NCBI GenBank assembly: GCA_038882975.1
Contig: JAVZNE010000001.1
Location: 1 to 64,000, forward strand
Length of the DNA: 64,000 nucleotides
Direction of reading: 5' to 3'
Source: Candidatus Bathyarchaeia archaeon
GTDB lineage: Archaea > Thermoproteota > Bathyarchaeia > Bathyarchaeales > Bathycorpusculaceae
The position numbers were made by a program, and so were the translations under genes. The first letter of the stretch is position 1. Each line of letters opens with the position of its first letter. This document shows positions 1 to 16,257 of the stretch, piece after piece. Under the pieces are notes generated by a model. That model saw nothing but the letters and a program-made list of their open reading frames with translations. It made no database searches and was not told where the DNA came from.

Positions 1-90
1 ATACGCTTACCCGGGGCTCTATCGCGGCTGGCCGCGCCCTTCTTCGGCGCTCAAGCCGAGCCATCCCCCAGACGGCGTGGCATGTCGGGC
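1..90 (-). rRNA. rrl: 23S rRNA, 5' end (gene continues beyond the left edge of the window)
   Basis: Reverse complement reads GCCGTCTGGGGGATGGCTCGGCTTGAGCGCCGAAGAAGGGCGCGGCCAGCCGCGATAGAGCCCCGGG, matching the conserved archaeal 23S 5' region (GGATGGCTCGGCT..CGCCGA.GAAGG.CG.G.CA.GC.GCGATA). The exact mature 5' end is approximate. Confidence 0.85.
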
Positions 91-274
91 ATTTTGCGGT
101 GTCTGTTTGACGTTGGCTGTGATTGGCATTTGGCAACTTATGGGCCTATGCATGGCTTCATTATGAGCTTAAAGGCTCACTCGCCCTTCACTCCACCACC
201 ACTGCGATGGGGAGCTGCATCATGCTCAATGGCTTAACGTAACGTAGCCAAAATAATTCTGAAGCGGCTTTCAA

Positions 275-1719: not shown

Positions 1720-1824
1720 TGCCGGGGGCGGGATTTGAGCCCGCGACCTCTGGCGTTGGGCGCTTAGCCCCCTTCGACTCCAGATTATGAGTCTGGCGCC
1801 CATTCCAGGCTAGGCTACCCCGGC
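1720..1824 (-). tRNA. tRNA-Met(CAT), elongator type, with a 30-nt non-canonical intron at position 45/46 (1748-1777)
   Basis: GCCGGGG acceptor and intact CCAGA-CTCATAA-TCTGG arm. The extra 30 nt form a BHB-like motif (CTGG/CCAG helix, AG^T and AG^G bulges); removal gives variable loop AGGTC. Confidence 0.88.
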
Positions 1825-1978
1825 TGATTTTCCGCTTTTGGTATGATTTTTGCTTGCTTATTTACGTTTCCTAAAGAACAGCAGCTTATCCCTTTCATAT
1901 ATGTCCAAATACAACTTCTAAATGGCGCTTTGGAACAAATAAAATACTCCAAGCTATAACACGCCCACCATAAAAATC

Positions 1979-2110
1979 TCAGGCTAAGGCACCGTGTGTG
2001 GGGCCGAGGCCGGGATTTGAACCCCTTTCTCTTGTTGGCTGCTGGCTCTGAACTTCCTCGTTTAACTTCTTGTCTGGCTTCTCGTCTCTCTCCTTGTCTT
2101 TTCCTTCCAT
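1979..2110 (-). pseudogene. int(N): N-terminal fragment of the split integrase of element A
   Basis: ATG at 2110 with GGAGG SD and TTTTAAA TATA box near 2157-2163. Reads MEGKDKERD...RERGSNPGLGPT through the att repeat, in frame with the 4573-5622 ORF once the att copies are joined. Confidence 0.85.
1997..2024. repeat. att site of element A (copy of the tRNA-His 3' end)
   Basis: TGTGGGGCCGAGGCCGGGATTTGAACCC is identical to 5659-5686. Confidence 0.95.
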
Positions 2111-2263
2111 CTTAGGGGTTCCTCCTTGCAGTCTCTATATTGTGGTGGCTTCTGCATTTAAAACTTATCTATGACTTGAGTTCAGAATATTGGCTGGGAG
2201 CTCTGGGGGGCTATTCGGCTTCTGGAACTTGGGGGTTCCTCCGACTGGCTCTCTGGGGCTCCC

Positions 2264-2587
2264 CTATTCGGCTGTTTTTATGAGTTGGAATTCAATGGCG
2301 TAAACGAATATTTCTGGCTGCCAGAAGCCATAAAGCCTAATCCATGTTGCCTTAAACTCTTCTAGGCTGTTGAAGCCTTCTGCTTTGGCTTCTTCTGGGG
2401 TTATGTCGCCTAGGCGCTGCTGCCAACATCTAACTATTTTGACGTAAGCCTTAGGGCCTTCCGAATAATCGTCCATGATTGGGTAGATGCAGCCTTCCTT
2501 CCATAGGGGCTTTAAGCGTCTGGTTTGAGTTTTGCGGCCTTCCAGGATGAGAAAAAGGAGGGGGCGTTTGAAGATAAGCGGCGGCAT
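2264..2587 (-). CDS. ASCH domain protein
   Basis: F....ILEGRKTQTRR signature and QRLGDITPEEAKAEGF motif. Confidence 0.85.
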   Translation of the reverse strand: MPPLIFKRPLLFLILEGRKTQTRRLKPLWKEGCIYPIMDDYSEGPKAYVKIVRCWQQRLGDITPEEAKAEGFNSLEEFKATWIRLYGFWQPEIFVYAIEFQLIKTAE

Positions 2588-2591
2588 GGGT

Positions 2592-2711
2592 TTATTCCCT
2601 TCCTGGGGGCGTTGGGAATCCGCAGCTTGGGCAAGCTTTGGGGCTTAAGCGTCTGATATATTGACGGCCGCAATAGGGGCATTTGGCATCTAGCCTAAAG
2701 GGGTCTGCCAT
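2592..2711 (-). CDS. 39-aa zinc-ribbon microprotein (absent from the ORF track)
   Basis: MADPFRLDAKCPYCGRQYIRRLSPKACPSCGFPTPPGRE, with two CxxC motifs and a GGAGG SD upstream. Confidence 0.65.
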   Translation of the reverse strand: MADPFRLDAKCPYCGRQYIRRLSPKACPSCGFPTPPGRE

Positions 2712-2944
2712 TTCGTGGGTTCCTCCTCGGTTAAAAGGCTTAAGGGTTGGCGCTATTTAAAATCAACGTCAGAATTGTTTAGAGCTGTCTGAATAAGGCT
2801 CAATATGCGGAGAAAATGGAGTTTTGGAAGCCTTTATTTTCGCCGGCCCCTCCCCCTAGGGTTTCCATTGGAAAATGTCAATTTTAGGGCCTCTGAAACT
2901 GCAAAATTGACCTACCCCCTCTAGGTTTTTAAGCATCTCTCCCC

Positions 2945-3118
2945 CTAGGTGTTGGCAGCTTTGACGTGTTCCGTTAAAAGGCTTAGGGTTTTGGCGTAAT
3001 CCATTAGGGCAGTGCGGAGGGTTTCAGATTCGCTTATTCCAAGCCTTTGGCTTATGCGTTTTAAAATCTCATGTTGCTGGCTGCTTAAGACGACTTTGAC
3101 GATGTGTTTTCTTGGCAT
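2945..3118 (-). CDS. 57-aa ribbon-helix-helix (CopG-like) regulator (absent from the ORF track)
   Basis: MPRKHIVKVVLSSQQHEILKRISQRLGISESETLRTALMDY: alternating beta strand followed by helix-GIS-helix. Confidence 0.75.
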   Translation of the reverse strand: MPRKHIVKVVLSSQQHEILKRISQRLGISESETLRTALMDYAKTLSLLTEHVKAANT

Positions 3119-3132
3119 TTTAGCCGTCGGCC

Positions 3133-3429
3133 CTAGTGTTTTGGCCCTTGTCTCGCCTGCAGTTTCTTACGGATTTTCTCCAGCTTCAGTTTGCCAGGGC
3201 TAGGGGCTGCGGCTCGCTTTTGTTTGGGCCATATTCTGGTGGCTGTTCTGAAACGCTCATAGCAGCGGGGACACTGCCAAAGGTGAATGAAAACTCGGAT
3301 TCGGCCCTTGCCGCGTTCCTCTTTGGGCGTAGCCTCCCATTCCTTAACTAGGTTGGCGGGTCTTTTGGCGATAGCGCCACAATAGGGGCATTGGGCTTCT
3401 TGTGCCAAGGCTGGCATTGGCTCTGTCAT
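3133..3429 (-). CDS. Zinc-ribbon protein resembling the Cren7 chromatin family
   Basis: CPYC...KEWEATPK...GRIRVFIHLWQCPRCYERFR resembles Cren7 [28 protein letters not shown]. Confidence 0.55.
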   Translation of the reverse strand: MTEPMPALAQEAQCPYCGAIAKRPANLVKEWEATPKEERGKGRIRVFIHLWQCPRCYERFRTATRIWPKQKRAAAPSPGKLKLEKIRKKLQARQGPKH

Positions 3430-3586
3430 TTGGCTTTCTCCTTCTTTGCAGCCTTTGCGGTCTTCTCATGATTTTGGCTTTCCAGGGAAAGACCTCCAAA
3501 AAATAAGATATGCTGGAATCAGTTTTTAGCAGTTCCGCCAAAATTTAAGTTTCTAGGTTTGAAAGGACAGAGAAAAAGGGGGATTT

Positions 3587-4015
3587 TTAACGGATTCTTT
3601 TAGAGCCTCTTTCCATGTCTGCTGTTGAGCCTCTTCCCGCTTGCAGTTCCTCGCTTTCCATGTCTTCTTCAAAATCAAAATCTGAATCCATGTTAGCCTC
3701 TGCCTCTGTGTCTGTTTCGGCTTCTCGGTGCTTTTTCCCTCGCTTAAGGTCTTCCGCCTTTATTCCTGGAAGTCCTTCGCCTGTGCTGTCTCTGAAGGCT
3801 TCCTCTTCAGGCTGCTGTTTTTTCTTTCGCCATATGCGCCTTCTTTGGTCTAGGGGCTCGTTGAAAACGCCTAGTTCTCGGTAAAGCACTGCTTTGGCGT
3901 ATTCAGAGGGCTTCATGTGGAACAGGGCTGCCACTTGCCTTAAGCGGTCTTCTGCCAAAGGGCCTATGCGGAAGGTGATTTGACGTCTTTTCCCATATTT
4001 GTCGGGCGGACTCAT
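3587..4015 (-). CDS. RHH-type DNA-binding protein with acidic C-terminal tail
   Basis: RQITFRIG...RLRQVAALFHMKPSEYAKAVL RHH pattern and a D/E-rich tail. The likely start is ATG at 4015, overlapping the upstream stop. Confidence 0.6.
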   Translation of the reverse strand: MSPPDKYGKRRQITFRIGPLAEDRLRQVAALFHMKPSEYAKAVLYRELGVFNEPLDQRRRIWRKKKQQPEEEAFRDSTGEGLPGIKAEDLKRGKKHREAETDTEAEANMDSDFDFEEDMESEELQAGRGSTADMERGSKRIR

Positions 4016-4383
4016 TTTTTCCATACCCCCATGTTTTGATGATTTTCTATGTTGTGGTTGCATGGTTTTTCTGAAAGCTGCTGCTTTGACGGTTTTATGA
4101 TGGATTCCGCTACAATGGAGTTTTGCAGTTCTGCAGCTGCTGGCGAATGAATAAAGTTAGCGTTTTCCGTCAATGTAGATGTTTTAGGTTTTCTTTTTCC
4201 ATACATGCGGGGCTTGATGCGTAAGAGTTTATGACATTGAGGACATCGGAAGGCACCATTATGAGGTACTGCTTCAGTCTTTGGGATTTTCCGCCCGCAG
4301 TTACCACACCAAAAACCGTTATCGTATATGCTGACTTTTGGAATCCATTTTTGGGCTTTGCTGTTCCACCGCCAGCGCTTCAT
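4012..4383 (-). CDS. Zinc-ribbon protein
   Basis: FWCGNCG...FRCPQCHKLLRIKPR. Confidence 0.65.
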   Translation of the reverse strand: MKRWRWNSKAQKWIPKVSIYDNGFWCGNCGRKIPKTEAVPHNGAFRCPQCHKLLRIKPRMYGKRKPKTSTLTENANFIHSPAAAELQNSIVAESIIKPSKQQLSEKPCNHNIENHQNMGVWKK

Positions 4384-4456
4384 AGATGGGCCTCCAAAGT
4401 TTTCTGATGGCCGTTAAGTTTGTCGCGGTCTTTTAGCCGTCTTTTTCTTTTCATTG

Positions 4457-4573
4457 TTAGGCCTCCGCTTCTAGGAAGGGGCAGACGGCGTGTTTTGTTA
4501 TGCATTTTCCGCCGAAGACGCAGGGTCCGTTTTTGCTGCAGTGGAAGGTTAGCTCAAGCTTTCTTTTCGCCAT
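4457..4573 (-). CDS. 38-aa Cys-rich microprotein (absent from the ORF track)
   Basis: MAKRKLELTFHCSKNGPCVFGGKCITKHAVCPFLEAEA; its ATG overlaps the integrase stop (TAATG). Confidence 0.5.
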   Translation of the reverse strand: MAKRKLELTFHCSKNGPCVFGGKCITKHAVCPFLEAEA

Positions 4574-5686
4574 TATGGCACCCACCTTGGCCGCTTAAAA
4601 AACATCGTGTCCGTTGTCTGCAGGGCTAGTTCCCAGCCTTCCGCTAGGAACCGGCTTATGGCTTCTTTGTCATGGATTCCGCAGTTTTCCACGTCAAAGC
4701 GTCTTGGCTGGTCTGGGTAAAGGTGGATGTATATCATGGTGGTTTCTAGGCTGCGGTGGCCTAGGCTTCTGCTGACCAGCGCCAAATCCTTGGTGGCATT
4801 ATATAGGCGGGTGGCAAAGGCATGGCGGTAGGCGTAAAGGCATAAGCCTCTAATGTTGTAGCCTGCGGCTGCAAGCTGCTTTTTAATCTGGTCCATGACG
4901 TGTTGGCAGTCTTTATAGTCCATGGGTTTTCCAGGCACATAGGGCTTGGTGAAAACATAGTTTTCCGGGCCTTTGTCCGCCGTATAGGTGCGCAGCATTT
5001 CTGCCAGCAGCGGGCTTATGGGAAGTTCCCTCTGCAAACATGCGCCGCTCCGCTTCTCTGAGCCTATTCGCACCAGTAAACGGTCAAAGTTGATGTCTTG
5101 TTTCCGCATTTGGAAGGGCTCGCAAGGCCTAGGCCCACACTCATAAAGCAGCCGGAAATAACAGCGCCACCTCAACTGTTTTGGAACTACTAGGCTGGCT
5201 TGAAGCGTGCTTTCCGGCGGCAGAACCGGCAGCGGCCTCCTCTTATCTCTTAAAACTTCCAATTTTTCTTTGATGCCGTTGGCTTCCCGGTACTTGTTAT
5301 AGGCGGCTATGAAGTTTTTCAATTGTCCTTTAAGCTCCGGCCTAGCAAGCACTCGGCTAACTGCTTTAACATCGTCTAGGTTTCCATGCACCATAACCGC
5401 CAGTCTAACCAAAATCTTCCTATAAGCCACAGCCACCCTTTCCTGCAACCTTCCAGAATCCACCCTCTGCTGCAAAAACACCGCAGTCCTAAAAATCCTC
5501 TGCAAAACTTCCCTAGGCAACCTCGCCTCCAAACTCTTCCAATATTCTAAACTGCGCTGTACCTGAAGCTCCCTCCCTATCTCCGCAAACCTCATGACAT
5601 TCTCAAAAACAGTGGTAGACACAGCGCCCGCCCATAAATCCCGGGCTAAGGCACCAATTGTGGGGCCGAGGCCGGGATTTGAACCC
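4573..5686 (-). CDS. int: int(C): catalytic portion of the split tyrosine integrase of element A
   Basis: Catalytic residues in GPRPCE, YAYRHAFA and LGHRSLETTMIY. The frame stays open upstream of the GTG at 5622 into the att/tRNA sequence. Confidence 0.9.
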
Positions 5687-5737
5687 GGGCGCCGGGCTCC
5701 ACAGGCCCGTAGGCTTCCAGGCTACCTCACCTCGGCC
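5661..5737 (-). tRNA. tRNA-His(GTG), target of two integrated elements
   Basis: G-1 plus GCCGAGG acceptor, CGGGC-CTGTGGA-GCCCG anticodon arm, C73 discriminator and encoded CCA. Confidence 0.95.
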
Positions 5738-5749
5738 ACTTTCATGGAC

Positions 5750-5785
5750 TTTTCCGTGACCTCGGCCGCTTTTCCGTAACCTCGA
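5750..5785. repeat. Tandem ~20-bp repeat next to the element B att site
   Basis: CTTTTCCGTGACCTCGGCCG followed by CTTTTCCGTAACCTCG; ACCTCG also occurs in the att core. Confidence 0.6.
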
Positions 5786-5797
5786 TACATCCTCAGC

Positions 5798-6994
5798 CTA
5801 TTTTCTTTTGCGGTATAGGCGGACACCGTTAACCACGTCGAAGGGTTCAAATCCTATTTCACCCAGTTTAACGGCCTCTTCAACGTTGTGGACGGCTTTG
5901 ATTATGAACTGGTCGTTTGGAAGGTTGTTGAAAAGGTTTTTGTCAAGTTGAATGTATATGAGTGTGTTGTCGATTTCCTTGTGGCCTAAGAACTCTTTGA
6001 CATGTAGAATGTCCTTCGTGTAGTGGTATTCCATTGTTGCGCGCCAATGCCTTAGAGTGTGGAAGGTTATGTTAAGCAGCCTTGGATTTTGCAGTTTAAA
6101 GGCCAAGCGTCTTCTAGCCCTGTAGAATATGGCTTTTAGGCTGTTTAAGGTGCAATCTCCAAACACGTATTGGCTTTTCCTAGGCAAAGCGTTAAGCATT
6201 CCTAGGAGTTTTCCGCTTAAGTTGTTGAAGATCCGTGGTAGGCTGCCTTTTTCAGGCGTGTTCAATATTATTATGCGTCTTTGAAAGTCTATGTCTGTCC
6301 ATTTGAGCCTTTTAGCTTCTCCGGCCCTCATGGCTGTTTCTTTAAGCAGTTGAAGGAATGTTGCCACTGTTTGGGGGCAGCCGGCTATAAGCTCGTCTAT
6401 TTCAGACTCCAAGGGTATGAAGGGGATTTTACGGGTCACTTGGCATTTCGGCTTCTCCCATTTTAACCCGTTGTATTTTAGGAAAAGCGTGTAGGCGTTG
6501 ATTATGTTTCTCCGCCTGTTAGGGCCCCATCCTTGTTCTTTAGCTAAAACTTCCTTTACGGTTTCCGGATTGAATAGGTTGGCGCCTTTAGCTGTTAAGG
6601 TTCTGAGGGCTCCAGTGTTTAGGCGTATGGTTTCAGCAGCATAGCCCTGCTTCTGCATCCACCATGCAAACTCAAAGATTTTTTCTTTTACATCTATCTC
6701 CCTTTGGGTTGTCTCCACAGCAGGGTTTCCATTTTGAGCTGTGGAGGCCAAGTTTTTCGCGCCTCTTGCCAAGGACACGCATACTTGGCGTTTAAAAGAT
6801 ATGTCGCTGTTCAAATTTAAAATCTGCCTTCCACCTTTACGTTTCGGGTTCTCTCTGAAGCGAAGCCCACAGTTTCGGCAAAGCCAACGTTGAACAGTTG
6901 AGCCGTCGCCTCGATAGCCTAAACCGTCGCGGTAAAGCTTTTCAGAGCCGCATTCAGGGCATTTAACGTTTTCCTTGGCAGAGGCCTCATACAA
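5798..6994 (-). CDS. int: Tyrosine integrase with N-terminal zinc ribbon (element B)
   Basis: CPECGS...CRNCG N-terminus; catalytic motifs TAMRAGE, FHTLRHW and LGHKEIDNTLIY. Confidence 0.92.
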   Translation of the reverse strand: MYEASAKENVKCPECGSEKLYRDGLGYRGDGSTVQRWLCRNCGLRFRENPKRKGGRQILNLNSDISFKRQVCVSLARGAKNLASTAQNGNPAVETTQREIDVKEKIFEFAWWMQKQGYAAETIRLNTGALRTLTAKGANLFNPETVKEVLAKEQGWGPNRRRNIINAYTLFLKYNGLKWEKPKCQVTRKIPFIPLESEIDELIAGCPQTVATFLQLLKETAMRAGEAKRLKWTDIDFQRRIIILNTPEKGSLPRIFNNLSGKLLGMLNALPRKSQYVFGDCTLNSLKAIFYRARRRLAFKLQNPRLLNITFHTLRHWRATMEYHYTKDILHVKEFLGHKEIDNTLIYIQLDKNLFNNLPNDQFIIKAVHNVEEAVKLGEIGFEPFDVVNGVRLYRKRK

Positions 6995-6995
6995 T

Positions 6996-7460
6996 TTAAG
7001 CCTTCAACCTCCATGGAATTGGCACTCTTTTCTTTAGGAATTTTATATCTGGACTTCCAACAACCTCGTAGCCTTGCTCTATAAGCTGCTTTATCTCTTC
7101 AAGTGACCCTGCTGGCTTAACAATGTATTCTTTAATAGGCTCTAGTAATCCGCGTTTTAGCTTTTCCAACTCGTTAATTTGGGCTTTAAGCTTAGCGATT
7201 TTCCGCATGTAAGCTTTAATGATAAGTTTAAGATTTTCGTTAACCCATTGAATTTGTAGTTGAGCTTCAGGACTTAGCTTGTTACGAGTTATTATGGCAT
7301 GGCATGAAGCGCAAAGCATGACGGTTATTTCTGGATCATAGCTGATATGGTGGACATCAAACATTTCCCTAGGCCCTCTAGCCCCACAAATAGCACATTC
7401 AAAAACGTTGGAGAACAAGAAGGAAACGACAGCCTTAGAGGGGCTAGAGGCCTCAGTCAT
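6996..7460 (-). CDS. HNH-like zinc-binding nuclease with coiled coil and integrase-like C-terminal module
   Basis: CAICG...DVHHISY...MLCASCH. Confidence 0.7.
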   Translation of the reverse strand: MTEASSPSKAVVSFLFSNVFECAICGARGPREMFDVHHISYDPEITVMLCASCHAIITRNKLSPEAQLQIQWVNENLKLIIKAYMRKIAKLKAQINELEKLKRGLLEPIKEYIVKPAGSLEEIKQLIEQGYEVVGSPDIKFLKKRVPIPWRLKA

Positions 7461-7466
7461 GACGGC

Positions 7467-7697
7467 TTAAACTCCCTTCAAAATTTTAGGGGGTCTTCCA
7501 GGCGGAAGTTTAGGCTTCTCTCTGGAAGGCTTATGGAGCAGGGGCATGAGGGCTAACAAAAGCTGGATTTCAGTAAGCAGCCGTTGGTTATGCCTGATAT
7601 AGTGAATGATTTTGTTGACTGTTGGATTCCGTTTTCGAGTTTTAATGAACTCTTCTATGGCTGTAAGCTCTTTCAGGGTGAAAATGTAGCTTCTCAT
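7467..7697 (-). CDS. Small basic protein, possible recombination-directionality or regulatory factor
   Basis: 76-aa K/R-rich ORF (MRSYIFT...PGRPPK) co-oriented upstream of HNH-int; function inferred from position only. Confidence 0.55.
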   Translation of the reverse strand: MRSYIFTLKELTAIEEFIKTRKRNPTVNKIIHYIRHNQRLLTEIQLLLALMPLLHKPSREKPKLPPGRPPKILKGV

Positions 7698-7760
7698 GGC
7701 TTGTTACCCCTTCTCTGCAAAAATTTTCGCTAAATTCCAACAGTTGGAATTTCTAGCCCC

Positions 7761-8027
7761 CTATTTTTCGCCTAGAATTTGCCTCGCTTTTTCAAGGGTT
7801 TTCTCAGCTTGTCGTCGTGCTTTAGCCCTTCCAAGACTTGTTAATTTAGCGTGAACTCTGCTTAAATTGTCCAATACTTGAAGCAGTAACATCATGTTTT
7901 TTCTATCGCCAACTTTTTCAAGCCGACTTAAAATTTTCTCGATTTTCTGCAGGGAGTCAGCTATCAATGAAGTCATTTTGGCATATTCGTAGGCGGAAAA
8001 TGAGGGTTTTTCGCTTTTGCCTTCCAT
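7761..8027 (-). CDS. Hypothetical helical protein
   Basis: 88-aa ORF in the element B operon. Confidence 0.55.
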   Translation of the reverse strand: MEGKSEKPSFSAYEYAKMTSLIADSLQKIEKILSRLEKVGDRKNMMLLLQVLDNLSRVHAKLTSLGRAKARRQAEKTLEKARQILGEK

Positions 8028-8152
8028 TTTCTCATGCGTCCTTTTATGCCTTAATCAGCACGCCATGGCCAATCAACGCCTTAAAGGGCTCAGAGCTTCC
8101 AACATCATCATTTTACATGGCATTCTATTCGCGAACCTTGATTTTCACTCCC

Positions 8153-8347
8153 TTATTTTTCCTTCGGTTTACGCGTTGAAGCCTTTGGAATTTCTCCTGG
8201 CGGTTGGGGCGTAGGCATCTCCTTTTTTGGCGGTTCAATGTAGCCGCCTGTCTGAGGGCCGCCCATTATGGGCGAAGCGCCAGCAAGTTTAGCCGGCTTG
8301 AAACGTCGGCTGTCAGGGCTTGAAGGAATCCTATCTTCTTCAGCCAT
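8153..8347 (-). CDS. Pro-rich hypothetical protein
   Basis: 64 aa, GAGGTG SD, start overlaps the upstream stop. Confidence 0.55.
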   Translation of the reverse strand: MAEEDRIPSSPDSRRFKPAKLAGASPIMGGPQTGGYIEPPKKEMPTPQPPGEIPKASTRKPKEK

Positions 8348-8523
8348 TATTTCTCACCTCTTTTCAGCTTGTTTGGCTTCGTTAGTTCCATATCAACACG
8401 GTTTAGTGAGGCTTTGGTTGGACTCATGCCATATTCGCCCGGTTCCCGGACTGTTGGCTCACCTTCAGTGTGCGGCTTATCATTGTCAAATGAAACCCAT
8501 GGCCTTTGCTTATTCTTCCCCAT
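8347..8523 (-). CDS. 58-aa hypothetical protein (absent from the ORF track)
   Basis: MGKNKQRPWVSFDNDKPH...RGEK with GAGGTG SD; fills the gap between coupled ORFs. Confidence 0.5.
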   Translation of the reverse strand: MGKNKQRPWVSFDNDKPHTEGEPTVREPGEYGMSPTKASLNRVDMELTKPNKLKRGEK

Positions 8524-8539
8524 GCTTTTTCACCTCCCC

Positions 8540-9157
8540 TCAAATTTTATACCTTTCAGCATACACTTTGACGGAGTAACCGCAGGAGCATTGAACGTTA
8601 AAGCCGTCTTTTATAAACGCGTAGACGTATTGCAGCTCAGACATGGTTCGGCATGATAGAATATTTTGAACGCCGCCAAACTGGCGCATGTCACACGTGA
8701 ATATTTTTTGGCAGTTTGGACATTGGATTTTCACCTCTGGGCCGTCGAAATCTATTAAGCCTTCACAATGGAAAACAATGTTTTTATTGTAAAATTCAAG
8801 TTTCTCGCGGATTTTTCTGGCTTTTGCCGCAAAATCTTCAACCTCTTTGTTTAAGGCTTCCATTTCGCTTTTAAGCTTGTCTACGGCTGATCGCCATTCC
8901 TTAAGCTCTGCTTCATAGTTGAAGCCTAAACTCTTTTCCAGGAAAAGCTTCAAAACGGTTAAATCAACGTCTTTAAACTGTAGCTTTTCTAATTCTCGCT
9001 GTAATTCCTCGATTTTGGCTTGCCTTTTTGAAAGTTCACTTTCTATAGAGGCAAATTGCCTCTGAAGTTCAACTTGCCTTTTTTGGAAAAGCTCTTCAAG
9101 CCTCTTCCGCTTTTCAGCCTCTAAACGTCTGATTTCCTCCATTTGCCGCCACCTCAC
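8540..9157 (-). CDS. Coiled-coil protein with C-terminal Cys (zinc) domain
   Basis: Long E/K/L heptad region, then CPNC...CSC. Confidence 0.7.
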   Translation of the reverse strand: MRWRQMEEIRRLEAEKRKRLEELFQKRQVELQRQFASIESELSKRQAKIEELQRELEKLQFKDVDLTVLKLFLEKSLGFNYEAELKEWRSAVDKLKSEMEALNKEVEDFAAKARKIREKLEFYNKNIVFHCEGLIDFDGPEVKIQCPNCQKIFTCDMRQFGGVQNILSCRTMSELQYVYAFIKDGFNVQCSCGYSVKVYAERYKI

Positions 9158-9408
9158 TACAATAAGCCTTTCTCTTTAAGCCTCTGTTGAAACTCTTCTT
9201 GAAGCCGGCGGTCTAGCCAGTATAGTTTAAGGCGGATGCTGGGCAATTCGATTTTAGGCAGCTTCTCCGCTAAAAACGCCAACAACTCCGCGGCTATTTT
9301 TTCCTGGTATGGTTTAAGCCGCCATTTGCTCTGCATTAAAGCTTCAAACTCCACGCGTTCGCGCTCTTCTTGTCGTCGCAGCATCTGCTCGATTTTTTTA
9401 TCTGTCAA
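9157..9408 (-). CDS. Hypothetical protein
   Basis: 83 aa, translationally coupled to the next ORF. Confidence 0.55.
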   Translation of the reverse strand: MTDKKIEQMLRRQEERERVEFEALMQSKWRLKPYQEKIAAELLAFLAEKLPKIELPSIRLKLYWLDRRLQEEFQQRLKEKGLL

Positions 9409-9520
9409 ACTTTACCACCACCTCACTTTTATTTTGGTTTGCGGGGCAACTGGGCTAAACCAATTGCCCATTCGCAAATTGAAGCCCAGAAAAACGTGAA
9501 TCGCGTAAAATCTCATTTTT

Positions 9521-9922
9521 CTAAGCCTCCAACTGTTTTATTTTCCAAATTTTCTTCTTTTTAATTGCCAAGAATGGGAGAACAGTTTCAATGAGGCTGT
9601 TTTTTTCAACTGGAATGTAGTTTTGGGTTAGGTAACGAGGATCCTGTAATATGTTGGTGATGGTTTTCTGAATTTTTGGAAGGTCTTTACTCAAAACCGT
9701 GAAGGCTGCAACGTCGGGGCCGAAAGCGAAGCTTTGCCTTGCAATCCATCGGCTGTTCTTATGATTAGTAATATATTGGTAGATGAGGCGGAAAAGTTTC
9801 CTTTGCCCTTCGGGCGCCAAGTTGTAGCCGACTTTGTAAAGGCATATTGTTATGTTGGCGAATTGAAGCCACCGTCTCACTTGAACCACCTTTTCCAGTT
9901 TCAATTCGGCTAGCTTGTTCAT
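9521..9922 (-). CDS. Hypothetical protein
   Basis: 133 aa, ATGA overlap with the helicase stop. Confidence 0.6.
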   Translation of the reverse strand: MNKLAELKLEKVVQVRRWLQFANITICLYKVGYNLAPEGQRKLFRLIYQYITNHKNSRWIARQSFAFGPDVAAFTVLSKDLPKIQKTITNILQDPRYLTQNYIPVEKNSLIETVLPFLAIKKKKIWKIKQLEA

Positions 9923-11610
9923 TTTGCAACCCCGAACTTGCCAACTTTAGGCACATCAACAAGCCAGCCGTCAGCCTTCAAAATGTCAACAACTTGTTTC
10001 GGCTCTAAGCCCAGCTCTTGAATTTTAGCATATAGGGCAAAAGCGTCTACCAACCCCTCGGAATCCTTATTTTCCGTAAGCCATTGGGTTAACGTTTCAA
10101 GGTTTTCTTTTAGTGTAGTTTGTGTATTTAGTGCAGTTTGTGAAGTTGGGGAGACGTAAGAGTTTTGGAGGCCTAAGCGTTCAGCAAGGTCCTGCACGGC
10201 TTTAAGTGTAAGGTAATATTCAACTCCGCGTCCAACTCTGCGTTTCTCAGTGAAACCTAAACGTTTAAGAGCGCGGCCCAGCCACTTGGTTGACAACCAT
10301 TTTTGCTCTTCATCGTAGGTTTGAGACATTGCCTCCTTGATCTGTCGGACAGAGAAGTAGCCATCTTGTGTTACAAGCTTTGTTAAAGTTTCAACTAGAA
10401 TGAATTCAGCCGTCTCCGTAATGTTTTCAACTTGTTTTTCTTGAGTTGTTCTGCTGGCGAGGTTAATCATTTTCTTTAAAAGGTTTAACTCTGGATTATA
10501 CTTGTCAAAGAAGGCTGCAAGGGTGAAAATAGGTTTCCACAGCTCCAAATCTCTAGCAGAAATGTTCATCTCCTTAACTTCACAAACTACACTTTGTGCA
10601 CAAACTACACTAAAATAGTCCACGAAAAGCATATAAAGCCCGCTGCGGATCTTCGGCCAAATTTGATCTGCAATATTGGGCTCCGCGTTTATGATTGCCC
10701 TATCCCTTCCACGCTTCATAATTATGGGAATACACCGTTCCTCTAGGACCTGCTCGATTCCCTCAATGTTGCAAACGATTTTTGGCGAGTAAACTTCAAA
10801 AGCCTCGGGAACAAGCCTTTCGCTACGTTTTTTCTCCGTGCGGTAAACTACTGCGCCTTTCTTGTAGCCTGTTAAAAGTAGATTGCGGAGCTCTTCAGCT
10901 CGCTCTTTACTCGCAAGCTTCTCGCTCTCGTCAAGAAGCAGGGTGCAACGGCCACTCTGTGTTAACCGATATAGGCTGGCTGTGCTAATATTGTTGGTGA
11001 AGATAGCGTTAAAGCAGAGGAGACTTGCAACCGTTAAAAGCTTGGTTTTCCCAGTCTGTTTTAGCCCGCCCACATAAACGTATGGATATGTGTTGAAAAG
11101 ATGGAAAAAGTATGTTCCAATTGTCCAGAGGGTAATGAAATCGTAAATGTCAGGATTTTCGAATTCTATGTATGTTTCATAGGCCTTTTTAACCATATTG
11201 TAAACTTCGGCGGGGTTGACGGATGCCCCTTCAAGCCAGGCTTTAACGCCCCCGAGAGGCCACCTGTTTTCAAAGTCAACAATGCGGTAGGCTAATCTCC
11301 AACGGAGAGGTTTAAGGGCGTCCTTATGCAGCGGAAATTTTTGCCTATCCGAAGTTATAAAAAATGGTAGCTCCTTTTCCTCTTGATTGCCTTCTTCGTC
11401 GACTGTTAAGCATGGAAGTGTAACGCCCACGACGGCTCGGCCGTCAATCACGTCTATGGCTGGATGCACTTTCCGCATTAAACCCTCAAATTTAGGCAGC
11501 ACCGTCAGTTTGCCAAGCCTAATGGCATTTCCAACCTCAATTTCAGCTTGAATCTGCTTTTCCGCCTTAACTTCAGCCTCAATTTTAGCCAACTCATCCA
11601 CAACGCTCAT
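9919..11610 (-). CDS. P-loop NTPase, primase-associated replicative helicase-like protein
   Basis: Walker A GLKQTGKT, Walker B LLLDESE, downstream R motif (ERCI) and a C-terminal wHTH-like region; coupled to the primase gene. Confidence 0.75.
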   Translation of the reverse strand: MSVVDELAKIEAEVKAEKQIQAEIEVGNAIRLGKLTVLPKFEGLMRKVHPAIDVIDGRAVVGVTLPCLTVDEEGNQEEKELPFFITSDRQKFPLHKDALKPLRWRLAYRIVDFENRWPLGGVKAWLEGASVNPAEVYNMVKKAYETYIEFENPDIYDFITLWTIGTYFFHLFNTYPYVYVGGLKQTGKTKLLTVASLLCFNAIFTNNISTASLYRLTQSGRCTLLLDESEKLASKERAEELRNLLLTGYKKGAVVYRTEKKRSERLVPEAFEVYSPKIVCNIEGIEQVLEERCIPIIMKRGRDRAIINAEPNIADQIWPKIRSGLYMLFVDYFSVVCAQSVVCEVKEMNISARDLELWKPIFTLAAFFDKYNPELNLLKKMINLASRTTQEKQVENITETAEFILVETLTKLVTQDGYFSVRQIKEAMSQTYDEEQKWLSTKWLGRALKRLGFTEKRRVGRGVEYYLTLKAVQDLAERLGLQNSYVSPTSQTALNTQTTLKENLETLTQWLTENKDSEGLVDAFALYAKIQELGLEPKQVVDILKADGWLVDVPKVGKFGVAK

Positions 11611-12611
11611 TTCACAACCTCCTTGATTACTTCGCGGATTAAACTGACTCCAGCTAGGGCGGAGCCTAGGCTTACACGGTTCTTATAATGGTAGTCGACA
11701 AGGGCAAGGCGGGCGGGCTTTTCCTCATCCCTTGTTAAATCGCAAACCCGCATAATTATCCGCTTTGCAGACTCGTAGGCTATGCCCCTCTTGACACAGA
11801 AGCCTAAGAAAGCCATCTCCAACCGGTTCCTTCGGCCCTTAACCCAATATCGGGCTAAGAATTTGGCTGCTTGCTCTTCCTCTTCGTTTGGCAAAGACAC
11901 CATAAACTCATACAGTTTTAAGGGAATTTGAACCGACTTCTCAGCCTTAAAACTCATTATCTTAGCTGTGTCGGCCTCTGAAAATGAAATTCCGCAACAT
12001 TCAAGCAGGGTTTCGTTTTGGATAGGTTGAAAAGTTTCAAAGTCAAGTAGACTGCTCCATTTACCGGCGGCTTGATGCTTGCCTAATGGAAGCTTTACAA
12101 AGTTGCCGTAGGGCCTTTCAGGTGTAAGTTCCGTTTGCTTTGGGAAAACCTCTACATCTTTAGGGTTTAACCCCGATAATTCCAAAATGCGAAGCCCAAG
12201 CCAACGGGCAACCTTAGCCGGTGTCGGAACATTGAAAAGAATCCAGATATGATAACTCGAATCGGGCCAACGGCTTGCCTCAAGCAAAACCGCATGATGC
12301 CAAATACGAGGTCTTTCAACACCGTCGGGCTCCTTTTTCTTTTCAAAACAAACCCGCAATATTTTATGGGCCGCAGCTTCTAGATCATTCAGCCTTTCAG
12401 AATCCAAGTCAAAGCATACATATTTAACTGTGTTGTCTAAGCCTAGCTGGTAGGCCCCGACGGTTAGCTTTCCCGTTAAATGATCCTGCAAAATATCCAA
12501 CGTTAATGGCTGTTCGACTTTAACGTAACTGCCATCATTTTTCTGTAGGCAGTGGCAATCTACGCGGTTGACGAAACACTTAAAAACCGCTTCAGCTAAA
12601 CAAATGGTCAT
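11607..12611 (-). CDS. Archaeo-eukaryotic primase (AEP, TOTE-primase-like)
   Basis: HLTGKLTVGAYQL, CFDLD (DxD), SYHIWILF, EVFPKQ and GNFVKLPLG motifs, plus a PriCT-like helical C-terminus. Confidence 0.85.
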   Translation of the reverse strand: MTICLAEAVFKCFVNRVDCHCLQKNDGSYVKVEQPLTLDILQDHLTGKLTVGAYQLGLDNTVKYVCFDLDSERLNDLEAAAHKILRVCFEKKKEPDGVERPRIWHHAVLLEASRWPDSSYHIWILFNVPTPAKVARWLGLRILELSGLNPKDVEVFPKQTELTPERPYGNFVKLPLGKHQAAGKWSSLLDFETFQPIQNETLLECCGISFSEADTAKIMSFKAEKSVQIPLKLYEFMVSLPNEEEEQAAKFLARYWVKGRRNRLEMAFLGFCVKRGIAYESAKRIIMRVCDLTRDEEKPARLALVDYHYKNRVSLGSALAGVSLIREVIKEVVK

Positions 12612-12757
12612 TTTAATGCCTTCTTAACGTCTCTACATGTTAAATCGCTGTGCTTTGGGCATTCCGCACAAACATTGGGCGGTATAGGCTTTCTCAAACC
12701 TATGCAACCTGCGATTGTGCTGTCCTCTTTAATTTTTTGTTTCTTAGTTTCACTCAT
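12608..12757 (-). CDS. 49-aa Cys-containing microprotein (absent from the ORF track)
   Basis: MSETKKQKIKEDSTIAGCIGLRKPIPPNVCAECPKHSDLTCRDVKKALK; its stop overlaps the primase ATG. Confidence 0.5.
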   Translation of the reverse strand: MSETKKQKIKEDSTIAGCIGLRKPIPPNVCAECPKHSDLTCRDVKKALK

Positions 12758-12847
12758 TAGTTTCACTCTTCTCTTCAACAATATGGTCCAAAAAACCGCG
12801 AAAACCGCTGAGTTTTGCGGCGGGCGTGTAACTTAAAGTGTAACCTT

Positions 12848-13246
12848 TCATATTTTCCCTTCCCTCTGCAACCTAACCAGCCGCCGCTCCTCTTTTGTCA
12901 AAAAGCTGGGCAAAGGCTCAGCAAACCAGGCGTGTTTCTCGCGGAAATCGTTCCACGACCCGCATTTTTGGCATCTGGCCCTAAATTTTCCCTTAGTTAG
13001 CTGATAGTCAAAACTTTGGAGATCATTGTTCCCACACCGACACCGCAAAATGCCTAATTCATCGTATTTTTGTGCCAAGCGAAACGTGAACCAAGCGTCT
13101 CTAAGCAGCCCAAAGCTCCAAAGAGGCACATTGTCATGGTTTAACGGCCTCTTTTTAGGCCGCCCCGGCCCTCCCGTCGTGCCCCTAACAAAACGCCCAC
13201 GCCCATTACGCTTATACTCTCGACTTTCTTCAACGATTTTATTCAT
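12848..13246 (-). CDS. Protein with N-terminal GRF..G..GGPGRPK motif and zinc ribbon
   Basis: RNGRGRFVRGTTGGPGRPKK, then CRCG...CQKCG. Confidence 0.65.
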   Translation of the reverse strand: MNKIVEESREYKRNGRGRFVRGTTGGPGRPKKRPLNHDNVPLWSFGLLRDAWFTFRLAQKYDELGILRCRCGNNDLQSFDYQLTKGKFRARCQKCGSWNDFREKHAWFAEPLPSFLTKEERRLVRLQREGKI

Positions 13247-13430
13247 GCTTCACCACATCTCTTGGCGGTTTCTCGGTGATATACAGCTTAAACGGGGCTT
13301 TCTTATCAAACACAATTTTAACGCTGCTGAAATTTCTAATATAGTCGATGACCGTGGCTATGTCCCGATACTTACCATACAAAACAACCGCGTAAAATAA
13401 TTCCATTTCTGTTAACTCCTGCTCTTTCAT
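13239..13430 (-). CDS. Small hypothetical protein, first gene of the leftward operon
   Basis: 63 aa with GGAG SD; divergent from the wHTH gene. Confidence 0.55.
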   Translation of the reverse strand: MKEQELTEMELFYAVVLYGKYRDIATVIDYIRNFSSVKIVFDKKAPFKLYITEKPPRDVVKHE

Positions 13431-13521
13431 ATTACTCCCTTTTTGGGTTTACTGTCACACTAGGTTTATCATTAAACTAAAAATATATAAGGTTTACGTT
13501 ATACTAAGTATTGGAATAAAC

Positions 13522-14181
13522 TTGACAGACAAGTTCGACATCTTAATATTCATTTATGAGGGGCAAAGGGAAAAAGGTCATGTAAGCTGGTCGGATCTGC
13601 TGGGATATTTTGTAGAGGCAGCCCCGCCCTTTCGTTATATCTCAAAACGCACGTTACATTTATGGCTTCTTGAATTAATAAAAGAGGGACTTGTTGAAAA
13701 AATCATTGATAAAGAAACGTTGAAGCCTTGTTATAGGACCACGGAAAAAGGCTGTGATGTTGCTCGGAAAAAGAATGTTGAAAAGGAATGGATAGGAGAA
13801 ATTCTAAAAGCTACAGAAAAAGTCTTCCGCGAATTTCTTGAAAGAGAAGAAGCAATGATCGATTTCTATTCAACCCAATCCACCCTCTTATATGAAGCTT
13901 GGAGAGCAATTTTAAAACATGAATTTCATATGTCAGAAACAGAGTTAGTCGCAATTTATAATTTATTTCAGTTAACAACAAATGAGCGGTTTCCCTACTT
14001 AAGTTTCTATTTTTGGTTGAAAAACCGCGAATTTGAAAAATTGAAACTAGAAGACATTAAAGATAAAATAGGTAAGGCAGTAAAATTAGGCATATACCCA
14101 AACGAAAAATTCCTTTTAGAGGATTGGAAAGTTTTACAAAGTTACCGTGAAAAAATAAGGGCAGCCCTAAAACAAAAATGA
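13522..14181 (+). CDS. Winged-helix transcriptional regulator, putative element repressor
   Basis: ISKRTLHLWLLELIKEGLVEK...YRTTEKG wHTH; divergent from the replication operon across an AT-rich spacer. Confidence 0.7.
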   Translation: MTDKFDILIFIYEGQREKGHVSWSDLLGYFVEAAPPFRYISKRTLHLWLLELIKEGLVEKIIDKETLKPCYRTTEKGCDVARKKNVEKEWIGEILKATEKVFREFLEREEAMIDFYSTQSTLLYEAWRAILKHEFHMSETELVAIYNLFQLTTNERFPYLSFYFWLKNREFEKLKLEDIKDKIGKAVKLGIYPNEKFLLEDWKVLQSYREKIRAALKQK

Positions 14182-14214
14182 TTAAAAGGAAGATTTGGCG
14201 GCTGAAGTGCGGCT

Positions 14215-14646
14215 TCATTTTTCATACCATGAATCTAAAATTTTGAGAAGTTTTTGGGTTATGGGGCTGGAATGGTTTAATGTCACTAGGTAGCCGCGTT
14301 TTCCAAAACGTGAAACCAAAACTATTCCGGCAGCTTGGAGCCTTCCGATAATCTGTCTAACCCTATGGTAGTCGTTTACGCCTATGGCTCGTGCAATTTG
14401 GCCCAATGATGAGCCGCTGCCAAGGCTTAAATAACGTATAACCTTCACCATTTTCGGGTTTTGCAGGTAATAGCTTAAATCATGCTTTTCAATTTCGTAA
14501 AAACTTTGGTGTTCAAGAAACTTTTTTAGGGCGTAACGTGCAGCCTCTTCAACGCTTAAACGTTTAAACCTTGCAAAACGCTCCAGACACGCATATAATT
14601 CAGGCGGCAACTTGATAATATAGACGCCTTCACCCCGGTTTAACAA
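14215..14646 (-). CDS. RHH plus wHTH regulator
   Basis: YIIKLPPELYACLERFAR..LSVEEAA and SLGQIARAIG...RLQAAGIV. Confidence 0.65.
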   Translation of the reverse strand: MLNRGEGVYIIKLPPELYACLERFARFKRLSVEEAARYALKKFLEHQSFYEIEKHDLSYYLQNPKMVKVIRYLSLGSGSSLGQIARAIGVNDYHRVRQIIGRLQAAGIVLVSRFGKRGYLVTLNHSSPITQKLLKILDSWYEK

Positions 14647-14652
14647 AGCCTT

Positions 14653-14813
14653 TCAGCCCTGCTGCAGCTCCTTGATAAAATCTTCCAAATATCGGGCTAA
14701 AAACAAGCAGTTTTCCGCCCGCGTCAAGTCGCCTTGGGCCTTAAACTCTGCAGCCTTTACGTGTAATGCCTTAATTTTCTCTTTCAACTTTTTTAGGTTG
14801 AATCCATATTCCA
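14653..14813 (-). CDS. Small hypothetical protein
   Basis: MEYGFNLKKLKEKIK...; start uncertain. Confidence 0.4.
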
Positions 14814-14947
14814 TGCTCATTGACATACACCCGTTTCTCTTTAACCGCCAACTCAAACTCTAAACGCTTAATTTTTCTCCTCAACTTCAAATTTTGATAT
14901 GTTAAAAAAGCAGCCAATATTGTTAAAACTAAATGTAAAGTGTCCAT
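14771..14947 (-). CDS. Small single-TM protein with basic tail
   Basis: MDTLHLVLTILAAFLTYQNLKLRRKIKRLE; GAGGTG SD upstream. Confidence 0.5.
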   Translation of the reverse strand: MDTLHLVLTILAAFLTYQNLKLRRKIKRLEFELAVKEKRVYVNEHGIWIQPKKVEREN

Positions 14948-14957
14948 CAACCCACCT

Positions 14958-15182
14958 CTAAGCCCAAAGGGCCAAAGTTTTCGTTGCCTTGCAATAATAG
15001 GCTTCAAACTCGGCTTGGCCTGTTTGGCCTTGCAAAAGCTGGTTTATTTTAGCCTTAATCTGCTCTACAAGCCCGCAGAAAACCACATTCGCGTAGTTTA
15101 TAGGATAAAATCGTTTGTCCTTCAAGGGCCGCCAATATAACAGCCAACGCTGTGGGCTGCGTTGCAAAACAATCCTCATCAA
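14958..15182 (-). CDS. Hypothetical protein
   Basis: 74 aa, coupled to the upstream ORF. Confidence 0.5.
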   Translation of the reverse strand: MMRIVLQRSPQRWLLYWRPLKDKRFYPINYANVVFCGLVEQIKAKINQLLQGQTGQAEFEAYYCKATKTLALWA

Positions 15183-15484
15183 CCAGTCACCTCAAGAAGG
15201 CTTAGCTGAACCGTTTTAGGTTCCTCTTCAACATGCCCCTCAAAAATACGCGGCAGCCTATAGCCCGTCATGTTTGGTAATTCAAACCTTATCCGGTAGC
15301 CCATATGCCTAACCGTGAAGCCCCAGCCGTTGTTTAGGCAAACCAGGACACGGTAAGCCGCCTTGACTTTTTCAACAAAACGCTCGTCATCCATTAACCA
15401 TTCAACTGAAGGCTCAACGGCTGCAAAAGTTATTCTGTCCAAGCGGATGTATCTGCGGCCCCTAACCGTCACCACATCAGTCAT
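15179..15484 (-). CDS. Hypothetical protein
   Basis: 101 aa with AGGTGA SD. Confidence 0.6.
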   Translation of the reverse strand: MTDVVTVRGRRYIRLDRITFAAVEPSVEWLMDDERFVEKVKAAYRVLVCLNNGWGFTVRHMGYRIRFELPNMTGYRLPRIFEGHVEEEPKTVQLSLLEVTG

Positions 15485-15515
15485 TTCGTTTTCACCTGTA
15501 TATACAAGTGCTACT

Positions 15516-15553
15516 CGAAATATTTAAATATTTCGGTGAATACAAGTATTCAC
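15516..15553. promoter_or_regulatory. Divergent promoter/operator with two adjacent palindromes
   Basis: Perfect 20-bp palindrome CGAAATATTTAAATATTTCG (15516-15535) abuts the inverted repeat GTGAATAC-AA-GTATTCAC (15536-15553). Confidence 0.7.
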
Positions 15554-15584
15554 GAAGAATTTAAAGGGAGTGTGGTGAATACAT

Positions 15585-15746
15585 ATGAGTATGCCTCGTA
15601 CAAAAGACTTTGTGAAGTTGCGCAAATCTGGAAACAGTCTAGTTATAACTATCCCAAAAGAAATTTTGGAAACGTTAGGCTGGAAAGTTGAAGACGAACT
15701 ATATATTGAAGCGAAAAACGGGACATTAATAGTGAAAAAAGCCTAG
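15585..15746 (+). CDS. AbrB/MazE/SpoVT-family regulator, 53 aa (absent from the ORF track)
   Basis: KLRKSGNSLVITIPKEILETLGWKVEDEL signature. Confidence 0.85.
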   Translation: MSMPRTKDFVKLRKSGNSLVITIPKEILETLGWKVEDELYIEAKNGTLIVKKA

Positions 15747-16240
15747 CATTTTTGCGCCAACGGGCAATCCTATTGCAATTGAATACTCTAACGTTAGAGT
15801 AGCCATTTTTACGCTTTTAGCCTAGCCTAAACTCGTTAAAAATGCCTAGTTGTGTCCATGCTCTTGTTTCAGTCGAGGGTATCTTCCACATTGCCCCTTT
15901 TTTGAAAAGGGCTCAATTTTGCAGCCCCTCATCATCGCAGCCCATGTTTAAAAACTAATGTGTATTAGACGTCAGAAACGTCATGACGTCATCCAACACC
16001 ATTCTGGACATCATAACTTAAGACAAGCCCACAATTTGAACAGCAAACCTCACCAGTCAAACCATCACGGACAGCTTTCCTGGAGCCGCAAACTGGACAA
16101 GGCCTCTTAAGCTCTATTTCCACTCGAATATAATGGCTAACATCTTTATCCGGCGGCTCAACCATTTTAAAGACTCCTTAAACGTTGCACAAAGAAAAAT
16201 GGGGTTTTCTGCTGGGGAGACTTCCCCAAAAGGAGTTAGA

Positions 16241-16257
16241 TACCTCACCTCGGCCAC
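16241..16257. repeat. att site of element B (copy of the tRNA-His 5' end)
   Basis: Identical to 5723-5739. Confidence 0.9.

Follow-up and report, generated by a model that had tools for sequence, protein, structure and literature searches.

In SSV1 and SSV2, pTN3 and pT26-2, the attachment site of the mobile element (attP) lies within the open reading frame (ORF) of its own integrase, a tyrosine recombinase, and corresponds to the 3' part of a tRNA gene; the integrase gene is split into int(N) and int(C), the latter standing beside the rebuilt tRNA gene. In the 2021 review of archaeal tyrosine recombinases by Badel et al. (PMC8371274), the suicidal integrases of SSV, pTN3-like and pT26-2-like elements are all assigned to the family PF16795, as one monophyletic lineage, and a single origin (a 'single event') is suggested for them, in hyperthermophilic archaea. 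Badel et al. 2020 (PMC7253208) give pT26-2-type elements a size of 8-38 kb and list five mesophilic members from Methanosarcinales. Here we describe a gene that is split by the same logic and encodes an integrase of a different sequence family. It was found in the first 64,000 nt of contig JAVZNE010000001.1 of a Candidatus Bathyarchaeia archaeon (GCA_038882975.1); this whole stretch is referred to below as the window. Window positions 1997-5686 very probably constitute an integrated mini-element, inserted site-specifically by a tyrosine recombinase into the 3' end of a tRNA-His gene, with attP inside its own int gene and the integrase silenced on integration.

An integrase gene split by its own attachment site

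The target of integration is a tRNA-His(GTG) gene on the minus strand (5661-5736), called by ARAGORN and matched by Rfam RF00005 with 53 bits. The insertion is marked by a direct repeat of 51 nt (1974-2024 and 5636-5686, 90% identity), which no other two-copy repeat in the first 12 kb of the window exceeds in length. As read from the sequence, this repeat contains an exact att core of 28 nt (1997-2024 and 5659-5686) composed of the last 26 nt of tRNA-His and 2 further nt, and the 3' end of the tRNA thus falls within the core. The tRNA-proximal copy (attL) and the distal copy (attR) define one element unit of 3,662 bp. Its GC content is 0.49, compared with 0.45 in window positions 17001-64000, and the genome of the window contains a single copy of the element.

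An earlier note on this DNA, made from the sequence alone, had claimed that an ORF starting at 2110 and preceded by a TATA box and the motif GGAGG crosses att, that in the integrated state this ORF ends after 43 amino acids (aa), and that joining of the att copies continues it in frame into the catalytic ORF to give a protein of 399 aa. All of these features proved to be present. The 43-aa ORF, int(N), runs on the minus strand into attR, where its C-terminal end reads ...GSNPGLGPTHGALA, and stops in the flank. The catalytic ORF, int(C), matches PF00589 with an E-value of 8.9e-24, and its frame is open upstream to 5721, where it reads ...GSNPGLGPTIGALARDLWAGAVSTT; across attL this frame encodes GSNPGLGPT followed by IGALARDL. 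Both copies of the att core are read in one and the same frame by int(N) and int(C), a match for which the chance taken alone is 1 in 3, and joining the two parts by coordinates with a script, as an in silico circle, reproduced the 399-aa integrase. In this joined form, attP occupies codons ~29-47 and is preceded by a charged leader of ~28 aa.

The expression signals lie on the int(N) side. A TATA-like box (TTTTAAAT) is located ~45 nt and the putative Shine-Dalgarno (SD) motif GGAGG 10 nt upstream of the int(N) ATG, and inspection of the sequence revealed no GGAGG before either candidate start of int(C), GTG 5622 or ATG 5592. Other genes of the element have an SD motif, for example the ORF at 2592-2711, in which the motif stands in the same context as in int(N) (repeat D18, 2104-2126 and 2705-2727). 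The layout in the window is that of type I in the classification of She et al.: attP lies within the int ORF, joining of the att copies restores one open frame, int(C) abuts the rebuilt tRNA-His gene, and int(N) is at the distal att, at the opposite end. After integration, the promoter, the SD motif, the ATG and the first 38 codons remain at the distal att, and int(C) is left behind the tRNA gene without a promoter, an SD motif or a conserved start of its own.

The flank of attR (window 1950-1996, minus strand) is supposedly chromosomal and is still similar to the 5' region of the integrase gene. Its translation reads HGALA, a stop and DFYGGRV, the counterpart in the element being IGALARDLWAGAV. 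In sequencing runs X1 and X6, a contig links a variant 5' region of int(C) to exactly the attR-flank variant of the window (loose end at 1984). Possibly, a related element visited this site on earlier occasions and left the flank as its footprint.

Conservation of the split gene in related loci

To collect homologs, we ran a search with the att-coded part together with int(C), which retrieved 49 close homologs (E-value of 7e-53 or better) in 50 hits. The suggestion that this is a Bathyarchaeial example is supported by the homologs: 8 of 8 NCBI-named hits belong to Bathyarchaeia or Bathyarchaeales, and 4 of 4 genome loci to Bathyarchaeota or Bathyarchaeia. In 39 related loci (L001-L039), ARAGORN identified 28 tRNA genes, with 15 loci having none. 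A tRNA gene sharing the strand of int(C) sits directly upstream of it, both in the window and in 20 related loci, the targeted tRNAs being Glu (ttc, ctc), Ala (tgc, ggc), Pro, His, Arg, Cys, Lys and Leu, along with one doubtful Ser call. In all 21 loci, window included, an open integrase frame extends from the final 25 nt of the tRNA as far as the point where homology begins, whereas the two control frames are open over the same interval in 10/21 and 11/21 loci. Among viral contigs, none of 17 pattern matches was confirmed by tblastn as a relative.

A second att copy, in the form of a direct repeat of 24-28 nt, was detected in 5 of the 20 loci (L014, L017, L021, L027 and L031), most of the other 20 loci ending too early to reveal one. 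Units with both att copies in these related loci measure 2,505-4,387 bp. In the five loci and the window alike (6/6), an ATG-started charged leader continues in frame into int(C), though other tRNAs are used. The leaders are homologous, have a MEEKQP-type start and extend over 22-38 codons to the end of the att core. In five of the six elements a similar TATA-like box and GGAG(G/A) precede the leader, and the layout is kept in L014, L017, L021 and L031. The leaders are homologous although the integrase bodies of the elements are only 47-53% identical, and to judge from these comparisons the leader appears to be under selection. The charged N-terminus to which the earlier note had drawn attention recurs, as a homologous leader, in each of the five related loci with both att copies.

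Sequence databases also contain contiguous forms of the protein. P0018, which has a complete N-terminus, consists of a charged leader, a tRNA-His core and the integrase body, with the core read in a third frame (GFKSRPRP). P0023, the N-terminus of which is partial, consists of a leader, GSNPAPST encoded by a tRNA-Ala core, and the body; the same tRNA-Ala core is read as VQIPPRPP in L014. P0045 is a possible third contiguous form. When the first 60 residues of P0023 were used in a word-based search, P0023 itself was the only sequence retrieved; the 150 best HMMER representatives added P0018 and possibly P0045, with no further clear contiguous form among them. Judging by these different readings of the same core, the att-coded peptide seems to be a linker whose sequence is unconstrained.

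Called N-termini of 59 family proteins are scattered over many alignment positions, and no conserved start of int(C) can be recognized. In the close relatives P0003-P0005, a Met aligns with the window ATG 5592, but this residue is not kept across the family at large. The proposal of a split gene had been made on the understanding that homologs consistently starting at GTG 5622, together with an upstream fusion that is not conserved, would speak for its abandonment; the comparison went the other way on both counts, with starts scattered and the fusion present in 5/5 loci.

In one subclade (L001, L008, L009, L010 and P0009), a conserved Cys-rich motif (C-P-x-E-x-C ... C-P) follows the tRNA-coded part and precedes the integrase body, upstream of the annotated starts. 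Since the motif is conserved between att and the called start, translation probably starts further upstream than called.

Integrase family and nearest known systems

The earlier note described the gene as SSV1-type, and this holds for the arrangement but not for the sequence family. PF00589 (Xer-like) matches 25 of 25 family members and PF16795 none (0/25), even at E-values up to 10. SSV1 Int, used as a control, matches PF16795 at 1.5e-61 and PF07935 at 2.6e-34. Comparison of the family with SSV1 Int using hhalign gave a probability of 1.7% over 29 columns, the two being too dissimilar to align, and no SSV1 Int chain was present in the PDB profile hits at E-values up to 0.01. Membership in the SSV/pTN3/pT26-2 sequence superfamily is ruled out by the PF16795 and hhalign results. 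Nor does the gene fit the type II (pNOB8-type) class: the frame is open into the tRNA in 21/21 loci, int(C) has neither a conserved start nor a conserved SD motif, and the leader is located at the other end of the element.

Both the PF00589 match and the conserved residue set identify the protein as a tyrosine recombinase. The best solved or curated relatives are XerA, XerC/D and IntI, with 4a8e at 1.3e-18 in the PDB profile search. The integrase is not a XerA equivalog, as it scored 71.7 bits (E-value of 6.9e-20) with NF040815, the cutoff being 220. Set against XerA, XerC, XerD and IntI, the family differs in being carried by a mobile element, in using tRNA genes instead of dif as targets, and in having an additional domain at the C-terminus. 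An exhaustive HMMER search delineated a tight family with 15 cluster representatives at an E-value of 1e-30 or better. The scores then fall, and the sequences that come next, integrases of 380-400 aa, carry a zinc ribbon at the N-terminus and form a sister group. These zinc-ribbon integrases (P0061, P0076, P0080, P0082 and the one at window 5798-6994) are the nearest sequence relatives outside the family, at ~100-115 bits to the family profile and 27% identity, and they differ from it in having a folded N-terminal zinc ribbon and in being intact when integrated. Among the matches listed in tblastn searches against phage and plasmid collections, none exceeded ~30% identity, and the best were all from bacterial phages and plasmids with Xer-like integrases.

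The elements resemble SSV1/SSV2, pTN3 and pT26-2 in all the features of the split named at the outset, and they differ from SSV1 in where the gene is split. In SSV1, att lies at codons ~63-78 of 335, largely in the stretch matching PF07935 (residues 7-74), whereas here att spans codons ~29-47 of 399 and is part of a leader modelled with low confidence. The sizes differ as well: the elements described here are 2.5-4.4 kb long and have no recognisable Rep, compared with 15.5 kb for SSV1. NitEve-E3 of Thaumarchaeota, likewise small, cryptic and from hosts other than the classic hyperthermophiles, has an integrase that is split into two fragments and is described as SSV1-like (PMC6563490). In the literature searched, supplements excluded, we found no description of split integrases in Bathyarchaeia, including passages of PMC10541130, PMC11697101 and PMC11529989, with the proviso that the family tables of PMC8371274 and PMC7253208 could contain related sequences. 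The split-gene mechanism is thus of a known kind, and what is new is the integrase scaffold and the split point.

Predicted structure and what the split leaves out

We modelled the 370 residues from the att core onwards with AF2 (AlphaFold2). The mean predicted local distance difference test (pLDDT) score of the model is 82.9. Residues 1-23, comprising the att-coded part and the linker, have pLDDT values below 50, and helices begin at about residue 24. Foldseek aligned the model over ~300 columns with two-domain recombinases, XerA (5hxy) being the first at 3e-11, followed by IntI4, Tn1549 Int and Cre. Residues R186, K211, R287, H310 and Y319 (numbering of the 370-aa query) are invariant in 25/25 aligned members, and we take them to be the catalytic R-K-(H/Y)xxR-H-Y residues of the family. 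According to the model, int(C) encodes the whole predicted enzyme fold, that is, both recombinase domains and a C-terminal β domain, and the split removes only a leader that is predicted to be disordered. Judged by this structure, integration looks like a disconnection of the enzyme from its promoter and start codon.

The small β domain that follows the catalytic Tyr is an extra one, formed by the last 40 residues (window 4573-4690, minus strand) and corresponding to model residues 329-367. Its motif EGWE...RPRWVP is invariant in the 25-member alignment, and integrases of the zinc-ribbon sister family terminate in a conserved tail that resembles it.

A mechanism may be proposed on these grounds. 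In the circular form, the only one from which the earlier note supposed intact expression, one promoter (the TATA-like box), one SD motif and one ATG would drive expression of the 399-aa integrase, which would be composed of the charged leader of ~28 aa, the att-encoded linker, the two-domain Xer-like recombinase and the small C-terminal β domain. The 42-, 123- and 158-aa ORFs packed behind int are probably on the int transcript. Integration would separate the enzyme from its promoter and start codon and thereby turn the integrase off, and the three packed genes behind int would probably be disconnected too. Excision would then need integrase supplied by an intact copy, by a related element or by leaky expression of int(C). 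Any leader could be combined with any att and body provided that the frame is kept; such free combination would follow from the att-coded segment being a linker, and it fits the mosaic exchange of leaders described below.

Distribution, conflicting observations and alternative explanations

All of the 18 listed sequencing runs are labelled hot springs metagenome. The stretch or a part of it is present in 16 of them, from 7 studies, and only X1, which may be the sample of origin, has half or more of its words. No RNA run is listed for the stretch. The flank of attR was matched in 30 of 31 genomes searched, the window's own included.

Several observations weigh against the interpretation of the locus as an integrated element with a split and silenced integrase. 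The att copies mismatch at 5 of 51 positions, all outside the core. Kin or near-duplicate loci (L017-19, L029/30, L034/35 and L006/7) are present in the set, and the locus counts given above, such as 21/21, overstate independence. The leader scan used a pattern that was written after the leaders had been seen and is descriptive rather than an independent test. In L006, the nearest leader ORF (2951-3161) reads att in a frame other than that of its own int(C), and the similarity between the att copies is limited to 17 nt, one mismatch included. In L029 (3430) and L030 (11238), the leader side and the int(C) side share no att, only 9 nt, and in L007 no second end was found. These exceptions may be chimeras, tandem arrays or decayed copies. 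Neither a usable circle nor an empty-site joint was found in the contigs of runs X1, X2, X4 and X6, which are too short to bridge att. In the 10 best-matching loci for the attR flank (9 same-genus genomes and the window's own), no tRNA-His follows the flank and there is no syntenic empty site. Finally, the model implies that int(C), which has every folded domain, could be active if it were translated.

The last point leads to the possibility that the gene is split without being 'suicidal': read-through from the tRNA-His promoter and initiation at the internal GTG or ATG would yield a leaderless active enzyme capable of self-excision. The position of int(C), on the same strand and 38 nt behind the tRNA gene, the retention of the whole predicted fold, and the Met that P0003-P0005 share with the window ATG 5592 are all compatible with this scenario. 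We nevertheless regard it as unlikely, in view of the lack of family-wide conservation of that Met, the lack of an SD motif at either candidate start, and the apparent selection on a leader that is homologous across bodies of 47-53% identity. In addition, a lack of in vitro activity is reported for the truncated Int(C) of SSV2, pTN3 and pT26-2 (PMC8371274); the analogy is weak, as these Int(C) lose a folded part, unlike int(C) here.

Alternatively, the copy in the window might be a decaying, immobile relic, with the in-frame fit left from a past event. The five differences between the att copies, the single copy in the genome, and the loci without a matching second end (L006, L007 and L029/30) would accord with such decay. 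We consider this quite improbable: the 28-nt core is exact, all eight ORFs are open, the invariant catalytic residues are all present, and contigs from four runs, each of a different study, contain element variants of 90-99% identity, which suggests a living population.

That the locus represents a classical pNOB8-type case, with the integrase complete as the 349-aa ORF (from GTG 5622 or ATG 5592) and the 43-aa ORF unrelated or due to chance, would agree with the presence of both recombinase domains and all catalytic residues in int(C), with public annotations as stand-alone 290-380-aa integrases and with the predicted disorder or low confidence of the leader and att-coded part, but is very hard to reconcile with the homologous in-frame leader and similar promoter/SD layout (6/6), the frame open into the tRNA (21/21 versus 10/21 and 11/21 for control frames), the absence of a conserved start or SD motif for int(C), the contiguous P0018 and P0023, and the Cys motif conserved upstream of called starts in one subclade.

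Cargo genes and probable exchange of leaders

We return to the locus as an integrated mini-element with a split integrase gene. All of its genes lie on the minus strand, from int(C) to int(N) (Table 1), and their content and order are common to the related elements. The 158-aa protein is the most conserved cargo, with 77-81% identity over 64-78 aa to its counterparts in L014, L017 and L021; its assignment as ribbon-helix-helix (RHH)/NikA-like is a lead only, being below the bar of Atlas, its source. Searches of Pfam, NCBIfam and PHROGs yielded no recognisable replication protein, and for the 158-, 123-, 98- and 39-aa proteins they gave zinc-ribbon and RHH hints but no family.

Table 1. Features of the integrated element, with coordinates in the window and the evidence on which each rests
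Feature	Coordinates	Strand	Description and evidence
attR (distal att)	1974..2024	-	core 1997-2024; repeat search, sequence
int(N): ATG, charged leader and att-coded peptide	1979..2110	-	ORF list, translation, related loci
Integrase expression signals	2121..2163	-	TATA-like box 2156-2163 and GGAGG 2121-2125; sequence
107-aa ASCH-domain protein	2264..2587	-	PF04266, E 1.1e-10; in all 5 related elements
39-aa zinc-ribbon ORF	2592..2711	-	ORF list; repeat D18
57-aa ribbon-helix-helix-like protein	2945..3118	-	weak RHH_1/NikA-like match, E 0.013-0.023; phrog_876, 8.7e-4; kept in L014, L021
98-aa zinc-ribbon protein	3133..3429	-	conserved in L014, L021, L027, L031
158-aa protein, probable start Met17 (4015)	3587..4063	-	RHH-like N-terminal part, acidic tail
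123-aa zinc-ribbon protein	4012..4383	-	blastp to L014/L017/L021 ORFs, 4e-8 to 4e-5
42-aa Cys-rich ORF, unverified	4457..4585	-	overlaps int end; weak zf-CCCH_2, E 0.037
int(C): integrase body	4573..5658	-	ORF from GTG 5622 to 4573, 349 aa; PF00589, AF2 model, Foldseek
attL (tRNA-proximal att)	5636..5686	-	core 5659-5686, then 23 nt of imperfect similarity; repeat search, sequence, translation

Comparison of two related elements with different targets revealed a mosaic pattern. Positions 2291-3323 of L014 (tRNA-Ala) and 3371-4401 of L021 (tRNA-Lys) are 93% identical at the nucleotide level over ~1,036 nt, the similarity ending inside att. The shared stretch comprises the ASCH gene together with the promoter and leader of the integrase, whereas the int bodies are only ~74% identical over 263 nt. 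This pattern fits an exchange of leader modules between elements with different tRNA targets. It is also in line with the shuffling of int(N) and int(C) proposed by Badel et al.

Taken together, we lean, with some reserve, towards a scenario in which the att-in-gene design arose a second time, independently of SSV, pTN3 and pT26-2, in a Xer-like clade carried by Rep-less elements of 2.5-4.4 kb in Bathyarchaeia. In this scenario, att would lie in a disordered leader, integration would act purely by disconnecting the promoter and start codon, and swaps of leader and promoter would lead to new tRNA specificities, which span at least eight amino-acid classes.

Neighbouring features of the window

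The 5' side of the same tRNA-His gene is occupied by a second integrated element (window 5737-16257). An exact direct repeat of the tRNA 5' end, 17 nt long (5723-5739 and 16241-16257) and with similarity extending further, delimits this element, which encodes the intact 398-aa zinc-ribbon integrase mentioned above (5798-6994, minus strand), which adjoins tRNA-His. The element also codes for an AEP primase-domain protein (11607-12611; PF22548, 1e-22) and contains a 563-aa ORF. Beyond 16257 the host genes return, with a response regulator. Because this second element is on the 5' side of the tRNA, one tRNA-His gene is flanked by an element of the split type and one of the classical type.

Near the start of the window, the 5' end of an LSU rRNA is found at 1-92 (minus strand), followed by an intron-containing tRNA gene of 105 nt (1720-1824, minus strand; Rfam 53.8 bits), which was missed by ARAGORN. 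Its homolog in the relative L096 was called as a tRNA-Met(cat) with a 36-nt intron.

Implications

That gene splitting of this kind is found on a different integrase scaffold argues that the design evolves repeatedly. With the whole fold left intact by the split, these integrases offer a clean natural test of whether silencing results from the loss of expression signals or from the loss of protein parts. The tiny conserved elements, with seven to eight genes and exchangeable leaders, represent a simple system for the switching of tRNA targets. Finally, gene callers annotate int(C) as complete integrases with arbitrary starts, and such elements thereby stay hidden in the genomes of Bathyarchaeia.

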